Part shown: in pieces, positions 1-3,842 of the stretch
Position numbering within the stretch: the first letter of the stretch is position 1
Layout of the letters: the number at the start of each line of letters is the position of its first letter
DNA from: a virus
Taxonomy: Duplodnaviria > Heunggongvirae > Uroviricota > Caudoviricetes
Virus record (IMG/VR): IMGVR_UViG_2663762948_000004
DNA length: 3,842 nucleotides
Direction: 5' to 3' (one strand)
Made by a program: the position numbers and the translations under genes
Notes under the pieces: generated by a model
Databases searched by the model: none
The model's input: the letters and a program-made list of their open reading frames with translations, nothing else
What the model was told of the DNA's origin: nothing

Positions 1-192
1 TCAGGAGCATTTCTGATTAACGCCACCGTTAAGAATCCACCCCTCAACAGCTTCACGAAGGTATGATTTGGGGTGGGTTCTGACTGGCTTCGGAAATCCG
101 TGCCGTTTGGTATAGTTCCAGATTGTCTGACGTGATGAAACACCGAGCTTGTTCATCACTTCTTTCTCAGGAATCAGGCTGGTATCGGTCAT
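1..192 (-). CDS. AlpA/Xis-family DNA-binding protein (prophage excisionase-like regulator), 63 aa
   Basis: Complete ORF: ATG at 192..190, TGA at 3..1. GGAGA Shine-Dalgarno 6 nt upstream (plus 203-207). Translation LIPEKEVMNKLGVSSRQTIWNYTKRHGFPKPV...EAVEGWI fits the AlpA/Xis winged-helix pattern (S-x-x-TI-W/Y ... G-FP-x-P ... W ... EV-x-x-WI) as I recall it from E. coli AlpA. Confidence 0.7.
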   Translation of the reverse strand: MTDTSLIPEKEVMNKLGVSSRQTIWNYTKRHGFPKPVRTHPKSYLREAVEGWILNGGVNQKCS

Positions 193-861: not shown

Positions 862-1344
862 TTATTTGATAAGAAGTGAAGGTTTCCCAACTTTGAGTTG
901 AGCGCCAGGGATATTTATTCCTGCTTTTAGTTGGTGTTTGATTGCCAGTTTGTCGGCTTTAATTATCGTTTCAAACTCAACGTATTCAGGAGGAAGGGCG
1001 CTTGAGTCGATGATTTCTACAGTTTCTGACGGTTTGCGGATTGTTACCTGGTGAATACCTGCTCGAATCTTTTTCTTGCCAACCATTTCAAGCGATGACG
1101 CTATATACGCCATAATGCTGTCAATCTTATTTTGAATTACTGCGGCTCGCTCATTTAGTGACTTTGCCTCTTCCTTGAGGCGTTCAGCATAACCAGATTC
1201 ATTTTTAATAATGGCGAGAAGTTGCTCTATTTTATCGGTAAATTCTCCTTCCATCCCTTCTATTGTGTCAGCAATCATCTCTGGCTCTAAATCTGAATCC
1301 ATCAATTTTGCGTATTCATTGGCAATTTCATACAGTTTGCTCAC
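862..1344 (-). CDS. Mu-Gam-like / siphovirus Gp157-family protein (putative DNA-end-binding host-nuclease inhibitor), about 160 aa
   Basis: The ORF track starts it at TTG 1350, but GGAGG (plus 1351-1355) sits immediately against that codon and 6 nt upstream of GTG at 1344..1342, so GTG is the likelier start (MSKLYEIANEY...). The C-terminal half (GKKKIRAGIHQVTIRKPSETVEI ... FETIIKADKLAIKHQL ... IPGAQLKVGKPSLLI) resembles my recollection of phage Mu Gam; the N-terminal M-x-KLYE-I pattern is typical of Gp157-family proteins. Overlaps the recT 3' end by 17 nt. Confidence 0.55.
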   Translation of the reverse strand: MSKLYEIANEYAKLMDSDLEPEMIADTIEGMEGEFTDKIEQLLAIIKNESGYAERLKEEAKSLNERAAVIQNKIDSIMAYIASSLEMVGKKKIRAGIHQVTIRKPSETVEIIDSSALPPEYVEFETIIKADKLAIKHQLKAGINIPGAQLKVGKPSLLIK

Positions 1345-2239
1345 TGGCAACCTCCAGTTTCGCTTTGCATTCTATGTAAATGGCTTGTACGTTCTGCTGC
1401 AATTTCATTCCAGATGTCAGGCGATATGCTTCTGCAAAATATCGCTTCAAATCATCCATGTTTTCTGCCTGAGCCATTTCATCACAAAGAAGTTGTGCTT
1501 TATCCGTTATTTCCTGCTGGCGTTTCCGTTCATCTTCGCGGATATCTTCCTCTGATTTGTGCGGCATAACTGGTTCAGTCCACACACCTTCTTCTTCGTT
1601 TAGTACGTGAATAGCACTATCAAGACGTGATGCCTTAGGCCAATACTTGCTTGCACGCTTTACGACCGTCTTTCGCGCCATCTCATTCCAGTGATTTACC
1701 CATGGTCCTTTATCGCTGAATGCCGCCTTGCTTGTTTTCCTTACAGCCTCAATTTCAGCCAGACTCATCTCTTCCGTTAGATAATCACCTGCTGGCGTCT
1801 TAACTGTGCAGTAAACGCCAACGATATCACCACGATCACCGAAGGCGTTGTATTTATGGGTTGGTGCTTTATCAAGCCCGTTTGACTCATAGGTATCGTT
1901 AGCATGAACAAGTTTTGCCTGACCCCATGAGATAACACCAGACTCCATTGCAATATGGAGCAATCCCATATAGCTGATATCAAGGCACACCATGCCGTCG
2001 CGAGGAACCAGATAAGCCAGTTTGCTGGCCGGGTTTAAGGTGATGCCGATCGCCGCAACATTGATGATGGCGTTCTGTGCGCTGGTTGGATTTGCCAGTG
2101 CTGTTTTAGCCAGGTAATCGTTTTTCTGGAAATACTGAATTGCAAACTGGCTTTCCTTAGCCCATGTCACCGTCTGTTCAGTCAATGCTCCGCAGAATAA
2201 CTGCTCCTGCTGTTTAACGAATTCAACGATATTGCTCAT
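1328..2239 (-). CDS. recT: RecT-family single-strand annealing protein (phage recombinase), 303 aa
   Basis: Complete ORF; ATG at 2239..2237 with GGAGA 6 nt upstream; ATGA overlap with the upstream 103-aa ORF. Contains the conserved RecT core GPWVNHWNEMARKTVVKRASKYWP (compare Rac RecT GPWVTHWEEMAKKTAIRRLFKYLP, from memory) and the upstream SYMGLLHIAMESG block. Confidence 0.85.
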   Translation of the reverse strand: MSNIVEFVKQQEQLFCGALTEQTVTWAKESQFAIQYFQKNDYLAKTALANPTSAQNAIINVAAIGITLNPASKLAYLVPRDGMVCLDISYMGLLHIAMESGVISWGQAKLVHANDTYESNGLDKAPTHKYNAFGDRGDIVGVYCTVKTPAGDYLTEEMSLAEIEAVRKTSKAAFSDKGPWVNHWNEMARKTVVKRASKYWPKASRLDSAIHVLNEEEGVWTEPVMPHKSEEDIREDERKRQQEITDKAQLLCDEMAQAENMDDLKRYFAEAYRLTSGMKLQQNVQAIYIECKAKLEVASEQTV

Positions 2240-2547: not shown

Positions 2548-2632
2548 CTTTCTCCTGTTCTTTGTGCTGATTGAGCATTTCTTTCATCTGACGAATGAAT
2601 TCTTCGTCTGACCAGTTATCTGTAAAACTCAT
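2525..2632 (-). CDS. hypothetical highly acidic peptide, 35 aa
   Basis: ATG at 2632..2630 overlaps the TGA of the upstream 50-aa ORF (ATGA), suggesting translational coupling; its own SD is poor (AGGAA directly abutting the ATG). Product MSFTDNWSDEEFIRQMKEMLNQHKEQEKDDDSDSE, 12 acidic against 4 basic residues. Its 3' end overlaps the 103-aa ORF start by 23 nt. Confidence 0.25.
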   Translation of the reverse strand: MSFTDNWSDEEFIRQMKEMLNQHKEQEKDDDSDSE

Positions 2633-2781
2633 TTCCTGCGATACCACGGAAGGTTGATAGCTGATTTCATCGCTTTATTTGCTTCAAGCCACATTTTTGA
2701 ATCAACAATAAATCGGGCTATTACTGCTTTGTTCTGTGCAGCACGAAGCATCTGGTGATTAATGGCTATTTCATTGCGCAT
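2629..2781 (-). CDS. hypothetical basic small protein, 50 aa
   Basis: ATG at 2781..2779 with GGAG 5 nt upstream; overlaps the 3' end of the 44-aa ORF by 16 nt. Product MRNEIAINHQMLRAAQNKAVIARFIVDSKMWLEANKAMKSAINLPWYRRK. Below the ORF-track cutoff; no family recognised. Confidence 0.3.
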   Translation of the reverse strand: MRNEIAINHQMLRAAQNKAVIARFIVDSKMWLEANKAMKSAINLPWYRRK

Positions 2782-2900
2782 AACGACTCCAGTTGTTTCT
2801 TTGCTGCTCTGATTAATTGTTTAACTCGGCGTGATAATTCAGATTCGTGCGGGTAGAAAGCGGACATGACGCCGCTACCCGCGAGCTGAAAGTGCATCAT
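2766..2900 (-). CDS. hypothetical small protein, 44 aa (internal-start version of the 92-aa track ORF 2766..3044)
   Basis: ATG ATG at 2900..2895 is preceded by a strong AAGGAG (plus 2907-2912) with 6-nt spacing. The 92-aa alternative starts at 3044 with no usable SD and would read through the terminator-like hairpin at 2964-2988. Product MMHFQLAGSGVMSAFYPHESELSRRVKQLIRAAKKQLESLCAMK. Confidence 0.4.
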   Translation of the reverse strand: MMHFQLAGSGVMSAFYPHESELSRRVKQLIRAAKKQLESLCAMK

Positions 2901-2963
2901 GGGTAACTCCTTATATTTGATTGCATAACGAAAACGCCTCGAGTGAAGCGTTATTGGTATGCT

Positions 2964-2988
2964 AAAAAAGGCCCTCACATTGGAGGGC
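2964..2988 (-). terminator. putative Rho-independent terminator on the minus strand
   Basis: Minus-strand reading GCCCTC-caatgt-GAGGGC-c-TTTTTT: a 6-bp stem with 5 G:C pairs (plus 2971-2976 pairing 2983-2988), a 6-nt loop, then a T6 tract (plus 2964-2969). It lies in the 183-bp gap between the 62-aa gene stop and the 44-aa ORF start. Confidence 0.5.
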
Positions 2989-3050
2989 AAAGAAGATTTC
3001 CAATAATCAGAACAAGTCGGCTCCTGTTTAGTTACGAGCGACATTGCTCC

Positions 3051-3078
3051 GTGTATTCACTCGTTGGAATGAATACAC
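3051..3078. repeat. perfect 9-bp inverted repeat GTGTATTCA-N10-TGAATACAC (candidate operator or RNA hairpin)
   Basis: Plus 3051-3059 is the exact reverse complement of 3070-3078. It sits 5 nt downstream of the 62-aa gene stop, and a boxA-like CGCTCGTAA (minus strand, plus 3032-3040) lies just beyond it on the transcript. Confidence 0.5.
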
Positions 3079-3083
3079 AGTGC

Positions 3084-3272
3084 TTATTCGTCATGCATTT
3101 CAGGTAATTCTTCGTATTCGACTCCCCATACGAGTTTACACCAAGTGACTCGCTCATATCTTTTACAAAAATCAGACCACATAACTTGTGTTCCATCATG
3201 GTTTGTTATTACTTCTGTAATATCACCAACACTAACAAAACTGGTATTAGAAGCAGTTATTTTTACTTTCAT
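3084..3272 (-). CDS. hypothetical small protein, 62 aa
   Basis: ORF-track ORF; ATG at 3272..3270 overlaps the TAA of the upstream 98-aa gene by 1 nt (TAATG), with GGGGA 6 nt upstream. No family recognised. Confidence 0.5.
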   Translation of the reverse strand: MKVKITASNTSFVSVGDITEVITNHDGTQVMWSDFCKRYERVTWCKLVWGVEYEELPEMHDE

Positions 3273-3568
3273 TACTTATCCCCAAGAGCTTTTCTGATTG
3301 CTGCGATACCTTTATTAACAGCTCCATACCATTCTGGATATGTTGTCGTTGTTCTATTTTTGGTTTGCTTAAGTAATAACTGAAGTGCTTCGAGAAGGTC
3401 AGGCGCTGCCGCTATTAGATTGGCATCTTCAATGCATTGAACTTCCTCACAGATTGCAATATACGAACGCCAGCCAGTGCCATTTTCAAGAGAGTCTGCC
3501 TGGATGATTTTAATCTCATCGCCATCCATCATTATTTCCCACTTACCTTCAGTACCTTTAAATTCCAT
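3272..3568 (-). CDS. Ead/Ea22-like prophage protein (tentative), 98 aa
   Basis: ORF-track ORF; ATG at 3568..3566 with GAGG 5 nt upstream. The motif ANLIAAAPDLLEALQ matches my recollection of the conserved A-N-x-R-LIAAAPELLEAL region of enterobacterial prophage Ead/Ea22-like proteins. The assignment is from memory only. Confidence 0.5.
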   Translation of the reverse strand: MEFKGTEGKWEIMMDGDEIKIIQADSLENGTGWRSYIAICEEVQCIEDANLIAAAPDLLEALQLLLKQTKNRTTTTYPEWYGAVNKGIAAIRKALGDK

Positions 3569-3620
3569 GTTAGCCTCTGTTGTTTATGCCAAAAATAAAG
3601 GCCACCGTCAGGCAGCCTTG

Positions 3621-3842
3621 TGAATCGCCACGGATAATCTAGACACTTCCGAGCCGTTGATAATACTGGTTTTCATATTCTGTCGGTGACATCTGTTCGC
3701 TAGAACCATGCCGACGCTTACTGTTATAAAACATTTCGATGTAATCAAAAATATCACTGCGGGCTTCTTCCCGCGTTCCGTAGATCTTTTTCTTTATCCG
3801 TTCACGTTTCAACAACTGGAAAAAACTTTCTGCAACCGCATT
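3621..3842 (-). mobile_element. IS3-family insertion sequence, right-end portion (partial; terminus placed approximately)
   Basis: Contains the transposase 3' end. The terminus is inferred at about plus 3619-3622, where TGTGAATCGCCACGG begins with the 5'-TG typical of IS3-family ends and resembles IS3-group terminal repeats as I recall them. It must lie right of 3580 because the 98-aa gene RBS and start are at 3566-3580. Confidence 0.5.
3639..3842 (-). CDS. IS3-family transposase OrfB (DDE integrase catalytic domain), C-terminal 67 aa; 5' end outside the window
   Basis: Minus-strand frame open to the window edge, TAG at 3641..3639. Translation NAVAESFFQLLKRERIKKKIYGTREEARSDIFDYIEMFYNSKRRHGSSEQMSPTEYENQYYQRLGSV carries the IS3-family signature around the third catalytic acidic residue (N-A-x-x-E-S-F-F with a basic residue 7 positions later) and the F-Y-N-x-x-R-x-H tail. 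Confidence 0.8.
   Translation of the reverse strand, partial: NAVAESFFQLLKRERIKKKIYGTREEARSDIFDYIEMFYNSKRRHGSSEQMSPTEYENQYYQRLGSV

Follow-up and report, generated by a model that had tools for sequence, protein, structure and literature searches.

A lambda tL2a counterpart that probably also forms the 3′ end of a PreS-type small RNA in a lambdoid early-left operon

Terminators that are overridden by N inside the pL operon of phage lambda are textbook knowledge: transcription from pL passes such sites only if RNA polymerase has been modified by N at nutL. Lambda tL1, located just downstream of N, is an intrinsic terminator of this kind within the pL operon and is overridden by the N-modified polymerase. 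N-modified polymerase can also read through insertion sequences, and the lambda pL genes are silent in lysogens. Further downstream, the lambda map of Luk and Szybalski from 1983 reportedly places tL2a near 33930 and tL2b near 33494, in agreement with the coordinates from our terminator scan.

The hairpin between ral and ea10 of lambda was explicitly named tL2a, a termination site of the early-left operon (10.1101/2024.10.31.621285). The names tL2a and tL2b, their coordinates and their suppressibility by N are used here on the basis of one sentence in that preprint and the 1983 map. A small RNA, LPR1, lies between ral and ea10 and has tL2a as its 3′ end (Silverman et al., bioRxiv 2024; 10.1101/2024.10.31.621285). 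Now called PreS, it is an Hfq-dependent sRNA of ~88 nt that is trimmed to ~68 nt, and it is made during lytic growth and not in lysogens (10.1101/2024.10.31.621285). PreS activates translation of host dnaN by opening the ribosome-binding site and represses alaS, as shown with compensatory mutants, and deletion of its seed led to less lambda DNA replication and less spontaneous phage release (10.1101/2024.10.31.621285). The documentation of PreS consists of this single preprint (10.1101/2024.10.31.621285) and one review citing it; a literature search found no further paper that prints the PreS sequence. The hairpin was thus already known, as a terminator from mapping in the 1980s and from a GenBank annotation, and as the 3′ end of an sRNA since 2024.

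The early-left operon and its terminator hairpin

The window analysed here, a stretch of 3,842 nt from a Caudoviricetes record (IMGVR_UViG_2663762948_000004), is the early-left operon of a lambdoid prophage. All credible genes were on the minus strand in ORF, Pfam and phrog searches, and thousands of E. coli genomes carry close relatives, as do phages such as Kapi1, HK140, mEpX1 and Gally. In transcription order, the genes and the elements between them were as follows:

3621..3842, minus strand: terminal part of an IS3-family element, with the C-terminus of its transposase encoded at 3639-3815 (Pfam rve_2, E 1e-12)
3590..3619, minus strand: terminator-like hairpin and T-run (dG -13.2 kcal/mol, z -3.7; terminator scan)
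3272..3568, minus strand: 98-aa gene, function unassigned (phrog_1273, E 5e-31)
3084..3272, minus strand: 62-aa gene, function unassigned (phrog_10407, E 1.5e-45; without a Pfam match)
3083..2901, minus strand: spacer of 183 nt between the 62-aa gene and cIII
2964..2988, minus strand: intrinsic terminator, ortholog of tL2a (terminator scan, fold, lambda identity, JQ182727 annotation)
2925..2952, minus strand: second terminator-like hairpin, AACGCTTC-ACTC-GAGGCGTT (2952..2933), followed by TTTTCGTT
2766..2900, minus strand: cIII gene, 44 aa (Pfam PF08134, E 2e-30), the first gene downstream of the terminators
2629..2781, minus strand: kil gene, 50 aa (Pfam PF06301, E 4e-18; phrog_2055)
1328..2239, minus strand: gene for a recT-family recombinase, 303 aa (Pfam PF03837, E 3e-32; phrog_148)
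862..1350, minus strand: Gp157 / Mu Gam-like gene, 162 aa, downstream of recT (Pfam PF05565, E 2e-36; phrog_253)

Two small ORFs lie between kil and recT in transcription order, and other accessory genes follow past the Gp157 gene. At the far end, a 63-aa gene (1-192, minus strand) is called an AlpA-family transcriptional regulator in phage match lists, and just upstream of it, at 214-233 on the minus strand, there is another terminator-like hairpin, GAGCCGCTATATGGCGGTTT followed by ATTTTTG. Across the window, ten terminator-like sites were counted, compared to 3.5 +/- 2.2 in shuffled sequences.

An initial annotation had placed a GC-rich hairpin with T6 on the minus strand between the 62-aa gene and the block of small ORFs and recT. 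The motif and its placement both held up: the terminator scan returned the stem GCCCTCCAATGTGAGGGC at 2988..2971 with the tail CTTTTTTAGC, and the small ORF that follows the spacer is cIII. GCCCTC (2988..2983) pairs with GAGGGC (2976..2971), giving six pairs, five of them G-C, around a 6-nt loop, CAATGT, and one unpaired C (2970) separates the stem from T6 (2969..2964). The plus-strand version of the stem is not followed by a T-run, which makes the site directional. A gene or terminator on the plus strand at this site was rejected, and the 54-aa plus-strand ORF found there was unsupported.

The hairpin alone had a dG of -10.7 kcal/mol and made up 82% of the ensemble, but its energy was unremarkable when the 33-mer was compared with dinucleotide shuffles (z -1.9), as 10/200 shuffles folded equally well. 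This number is what could be expected if the site were a functionless, chance GC-rich inverted repeat beside a T-run. Conservation, not energy, lifted the hairpin above chance. Window positions 2964-3083 matched lambda 33926-34045, the ral-ea10 spacer that ends in tL2a, at 117 of 120 positions (97.5%; BLAST), and a terminator scan of lambda 31000-36000 gave a near-identical hairpin, TTGCCCTCCAGTGTGAGGGCGA-TTTTTT, just upstream of ea10. In addition, the GenBank record JQ182727 (Escherichia phage mEpX1) annotates the orthologous hairpin, at 27132-27155, as a rho-independent terminator.

The conservation was also followed across phage and prophage loci that were anchored either on Kil or on a 22-nt pattern from the 5′ part of the sRNA. 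This survey gave 206 instances with 69 distinct sRNA variants. The sRNA body was nearly invariant, and apart from rare single mismatches and one change compatible with wobble pairing the terminator stem was conserved, whereas the loops varied (CAGTGT, CAATGT, CGATGT, CTATGT, TAATGT, CCGTGT and others). All 206 instances ended in a hairpin and a T-run of 5-8 T (4 T in one variant with an alternative terminator). In divergent variants, two other terminator hairpins were substituted (e.g. GCCGCTC...GGGCGGC), again with a T-run; the window hairpin at 214-233 is similar to one alternative terminator hairpin of such divergent PreS variants, GCCGCTCTATATGGGCGGC. Variation confined to the loop, the substitution of other hairpin-plus-T-run modules, the orthology to a named lambda terminator and the existing annotation in JQ182727 leave a chance repeat with virtually no weight; judged from the sequences, that explanation is refuted by the conservation data. 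The hairpin is a well-conserved copy of lambda tL2a, an already-described element rather than a new regulatory device.

BLAST of the window against lambda 31000-36000 gave only three matches, all of them non-coding. Besides the match that ends in tL2a, window 2924-2967 aligned with 44/47 identities to lambda 33483-33529 in the ea10-cIII spacer, and window 3576-3621 was 91% identical to lambda 34055-34100, the hairpin at the 3′ end of ral, which was found in the lambda scan too. The alignment that ends in tL2a and the one in the ea10-cIII spacer overlapped in a shared TTTT of the window. The three matches indicate that the window has the ral-ea10 spacer fused at the T-tract to the ea10-cIII spacer, with ea10 missing.

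The spacer as a PreS copy

The conserved spacer begins directly after the stop codon of the 62-aa gene, and many phage matches stop at 3083, which marks a mosaic boundary there. The spacer folded at -65.6 kcal/mol compared to -40.9 +/- 4.2 in shuffles (z -5.9), and it holds four elements, namely a hairpin called H1 here, a structured middle part, the hairpin 2988..2971 and the second hairpin 2952..2933. The first three of these coincide with the lambda sRNA and its upstream flank. The +1 of lambda PreS follows from P810 (GAGCAATGTCGCTCGTAACT), a cloning primer listed in Table S5 of the preprint (10.1101/2024.10.31.621285), and the following features were placed with it:

3050..3080, minus strand: hairpin H1, 14 bp, immediately before the sRNA; nt +1 is part of the last pair of the hairpin
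3049..2964, minus strand: PreS homolog, 86 nt, placed by identity to lambda PreS and by the primer-defined +1
3049..3036, minus strand: stem-loop SL1, nt 1-14 of the PreS homolog
3028..3011, minus strand: stem-loop SL2, nt 22-39
3019..2990, minus strand: seed, about nt 31-60, followed by the terminator at nt 62-86

The PreS homolog was identical to lambda PreS at 83/86 positions (96.5%; 3 mismatches and 0 gaps), within the limits that its describers set for the conservation of LPR1, a minimum of 92% identity and no more than 3 gaps (10.1101/2024.10.31.621285). The three differences were confined to one loop base and to the junction between stem and tail, which reads GGGC-C-U6 compared to GGGC-GA-U6 in lambda. 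The primers P838/P839 and P888/P889 define the triplets that were mutated in lambda PreS, CUG for dnaN and GAA for alaS (10.1101/2024.10.31.621285). Both were intact in the window, at nt 40-42 (3010..3008) and nt 50-52 (3000..2998), respectively. In RNAduplex, sRNA nt 31-60 paired with the E. coli K-12 dnaN leader at -46..-11 with -28.6 kcal/mol, identical to lambda, and seed-dnaN duplexes ranged from -25.9 to -28.6 kcal/mol compared to -13.1 +/- 2.5 for shuffled seeds. The terminator hairpin and the U-tail together make a predicted Hfq-type 3′ end. By this sequence evidence, the spacer holds a complete, undecayed PreS copy. The RNAalifold consensus of the survey sequences likewise had SL1 at nt 1-14, SL2 at nt 22-39, a single-stranded seed and the terminator, and SL2 covaried, with G-C in place of A-U and A-U in place of G-U.

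We consider it highly probable, at roughly 85%, that the hairpin is the tL2a ortholog of a lambdoid early-left operon and has two linked jobs, as a terminator and as the 3′ module of an sRNA. The stem-loop and its U-tail would then be the Hfq-binding 3′ end of the 86-nt RNA 3049..2964. Its seed would open the dnaN ribosome-binding site, resulting in more beta clamp and more phage DNA replication, and alaS would be repressed, as in lambda. We infer from the conserved body, seed and 3′ end that the window copy would behave like lambda PreS. For the annotation of such genomes this is a correction, since the spacer between the 62-aa gene and cIII holds a full PreS copy and not merely a terminator. 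A covariance-model search against Rfam 15 at E <= 1 gave no relevant family, the sole match being a chance mir-15 at 2729-2816. Evidently PreS is not yet a curated Rfam family, and current genome annotations, including those based on Rfam, miss it.

H1 folded with a dG of -18.8 kcal/mol and a z of -7.1, and it is identical in lambda. In every locus of the survey, a strong hairpin ended 1-3 nt before the sRNA +1, and this hairpin came in four unrelated sequences (IMG/VR loci L004-L227) of 11-14 bp and -14 to -19 kcal/mol:

H1: GTGTATTCA.../...TGAATACAC, 189 instances
H1b: TATAGCAGA.../...TCTGCTATG, 12 instances
H1c: AATGACCA.../...TGGTCATT, 3 instances
H1d: AATGCGGA.../...TTCCGCATT, 2 instances

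A structure that is kept while its sequence is replaced suggests a biogenesis signal that is selected for structure, and H1 may be a processing determinant, or a 3′-protective element or cap for the upstream mRNA. A promoter for the sRNA inside H1 was considered and rejected, as it contains no plausible -10/-35 and other loci have unrelated sequences in its place. We infer that the 5′ end of the sRNA is made by processing just 3′ of H1 rather than by a promoter of its own, given that +1 lies directly 3′ of H1, that no promoter is visible, that expression tracks the derepression of pL and that H1 is replaced in other loci. An H1-type hairpin is not mentioned in the PreS preprint (10.1101/2024.10.31.621285).

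The survey also contained divergent PreS types (IMG/VR loci such as L054, L028 and L038). Type B is ~83% identical, has the seed GUUCUGGUUAAUCGAAAAAUCAUCCCUUGAU and ends in another terminator hairpin; it paired with the dnaN leader at -53..-17 with -28.0 kcal/mol compared to -19.5 +/- 3.2 for shuffled sequences, a modest z of about -2.7. In a chimeric type, nt 1-56 are joined to another terminator, and in the type C variant the complementarity to dnaN was not above that of shuffles. The T-tract at 2964-2970 on the minus strand was a mosaic junction: at least five gene cassettes start directly after it, namely an ea10-type cassette, ATGTCAAACATC, and ATGAGTGAAGTAACAG, ATGATAAAAACTG, ATGAAATTACGTG and ATGGAAATTACAG, or none does, as in the window. 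It is possible, if somewhat doubtful, that the sRNA/terminator unit is a portable module that combines the H1 biogenesis signal, the cassette junction at the T-tract and a family-wide targeting of dnaN. If so, the complementarity of type B would make dnaN targeting a selected trait of a broader sRNA family. The sequence-unrelated hairpin before the sRNA, the cassette junction and the second seed type complementary to the dnaN leader are modestly new.

The lambda PreS pattern was also present in assemblies of Pseudoxanthomonas, Shewanella, Bradyrhizobium, Neobacillus, Kitasatospora and others (L085-L107). Most matches outside Escherichia/Shimwellia were on low-coverage contigs, and two Pseudomonas contigs were ~48.4-48.5 kb long. 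These out-of-range matches are almost certainly lambda DNA contamination of the assemblies and not real prophages, which makes the contig scan uninformative on taxonomic range.

Termination, read-through and the upstream insertion

Downstream of the tL2a stem, the second hairpin (2952..2933) folded at -9.9 kcal/mol with a z of -4.2. Its lambda counterpart, AACGCTTCACTCGAGGCGTT-TTTCGTT, lies just upstream of cIII, and the hairpin itself is identical to that of the window. We take this lambda hairpin to be tL2b. In the window, the tL2b hairpin follows 18 nt past the tL2a stem because ea10 is absent. Within the family, the tL2b stem showed a compensatory C-G to U-A change in 25 of ~160 instances, and its loops varied.

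The initial annotation had also stated that no strong promoter lies downstream of the hairpin, and the promoter scan agreed: on the minus strand between 2963 and 2900, no site reached 9/12. The best candidate named there, TTCACT-16-TGCAAT at 2948..2921, scored 8/12, and it is the one observation in favour of an own promoter for cIII-kil-recT between the terminators and cIII, which would make antitermination irrelevant. Such a promoter is very improbable. The candidate falls below the 9/12 threshold of the scan, its -35 element is part of the conserved tL2b stem, and the covariation of this stem argues for an RNA structure and not for promoter function. Moreover, lambda PreS is silent in lysogens (10.1101/2024.10.31.621285).

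Translation of cIII most likely starts downstream of both hairpins. The 44-aa form with its start at 2900 was favoured by PGAP and by the Shine-Dalgarno sequence AAGGAG, which lies 7 nt upstream of that start. A 92-aa ORF (2766-3044, minus strand; counterpart in the related locus L001 at 6259-6534) extends cIII upstream over both terminators and part of the sRNA.

Of 119 related loci, 117 had a gene of the N family upstream in the same orientation. This count covered loci with at least 2.5 kb of upstream sequence and used five N types as queries; the P22 and H-19B N queries were validated by their matches. The closest E. coli prophage and mEpX1 likewise have an N-family gene upstream. With N in 117/119 loci, N-dependent read-through into cIII-kil-recT is the textbook expectation, and by analogy with lambda N would probably override the terminator of the window copy. 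Polymerase from pL without N modification would tend to stop at the GC-rich stem and U6, and polymerase that passes the tL2a hairpin would meet the tL2b hairpin 18 nt on. N-modified polymerase would read into cIII, kil, the small ORFs, recT and gp157.

The 6-bp stem, the unpaired C before the U-tract and the ordinary energy suggest that the termination efficiency may be modest. In lambda, PreS accumulates while N is active, which would mean that antitermination is incomplete or that the 3′ end comes from read-through RNA that has been trimmed. An improbable extension of the latter would be that the hairpin is mainly a module for 3′ protection and Hfq loading, that the 3′ end is made by exonucleolytic trimming and that downstream expression does not really depend on antitermination. 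The accumulation of lambda PreS in the lytic cycle, with N active, fits this explanation (10.1101/2024.10.31.621285), as do the short stem, the 1-nt spacer before the U-tract and the unremarkable energy. However, 5-8 T come directly after the stem in practically every one of the 206 instances, including those with another hairpin sequence. A T-run that is kept in this way is expected for termination and Hfq binding but would be needless for a mere block to exonucleases. The preprint, too, lists the site among the termination sites of the early-left operon (10.1101/2024.10.31.621285).

In the window, cIII is immediately downstream of the hairpin, and the region further upstream has given way to the IS3-family element at 3621. 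Prophage matches stopped at 3621, and matches to IS3-family transposase genes started at ~3617. The inverted repeat of the IS starts with TGAATCGCCACGG, and the transposase reads in the direction of the operon. By comparison with relatives, the IS went into an 83-aa prophage gene 11 nt ahead of its stop codon, beside the terminator-like hairpin 3619..3590, which has the TGA stop of the truncated gene in its loop. The 83-aa homolog in the closest prophage showed no similarity to lambda Ral, so the truncated gene was rejected as ral-like; only the hairpin that follows is shared. The junction between IS and prophage was present in 0/5,426 complete E. coli genomes and is thus a private event. The initial annotation contained neither this IS3-family insertion (3621) nor tL2b (2952..2933) or the PreS sRNA (3049..2964).

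The insertion bears on the function of the whole module, as it may part the module from pL, nutL and N, and in that case neither N read-through nor an sRNA in the lytic cycle need occur. On this ground, the hairpin could be a terminator only, either a relic attenuator or an end point for transcription from the IS or the decayed prophage, with no functional sRNA and with pL disconnected by the IS. The truncation of the upstream gene by the IS end at 3621, the shared direction of transposase and operon, and the private junction all speak for this explanation, which we nevertheless regard as unlikely. The sRNA body, the seed and the flanking hairpin are undecayed, and the 83/86 match to lambda has its changes in the loop and the stem-tail junction only. 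Since N-modified polymerase can cross insertion sequences, the IS alone need not uncouple the module if pL, nutL and N lie beyond it, and the module may or may not still be under N control.

Comparison with named systems

The initial annotation had likened the site to lambda tL1 under N control. The likeness is in the kind of device: the site does have the motif of an intrinsic terminator, on the strand that is transcribed in a lambdoid early-left operon, but the lambda counterpart is tL2a (117/120) and the window hairpin is not an ortholog of tL1. BLAST of the window against lambda 31000-36000 gave no DNA-level match to the region just downstream of N, where tL1 is located.

With lambda tL2a, the window hairpin shares the GCCCTC/GAGGGC stem followed by T6, the strand, and the place in the operon upstream of cIII and, judged from related loci, probably downstream of the accessory genes of the N region. 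The loop has an A where lambda has a G, and at the junction, GGGC-C-T6 compared to GGGC-GA-T6, the two extra outer pairs of lambda are lost. In lambda, ea10 comes next, whereas tL2b and then cIII come next in the window, and the recombination genes are recT/gp157 instead of gam-bet-exo.

The PreS copy resembles lambda PreS over its full 86 nt without gaps, in the primer-defined 5′ end, the seed, the predicted duplex with the dnaN leader and the terminator-type 3′ end. It differs in its neighbours, as the 62-aa gene replaces ral upstream and ea10 is missing downstream, and in that the operon is broken by an IS element further upstream.

The record of mEpX1 (JQ182727) draws the cIII CDS in its 92-aa form, spanning both terminators, and leaves the sRNA unmentioned. 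The mEpX1 terminator is the same element, with 98.8% identity and the same arrangement, tL2b and cIII following directly, and N and a putative nutL boxA are annotated upstream. Compared to lambda, the surrounding protein genes have all been exchanged, and only three short non-coding islands are kept at the DNA level, namely the ral-end hairpin, H1 with PreS/tL2a, and tL2b. This supports a view of these RNA elements as a stable scaffold of the mosaic early-left operon.
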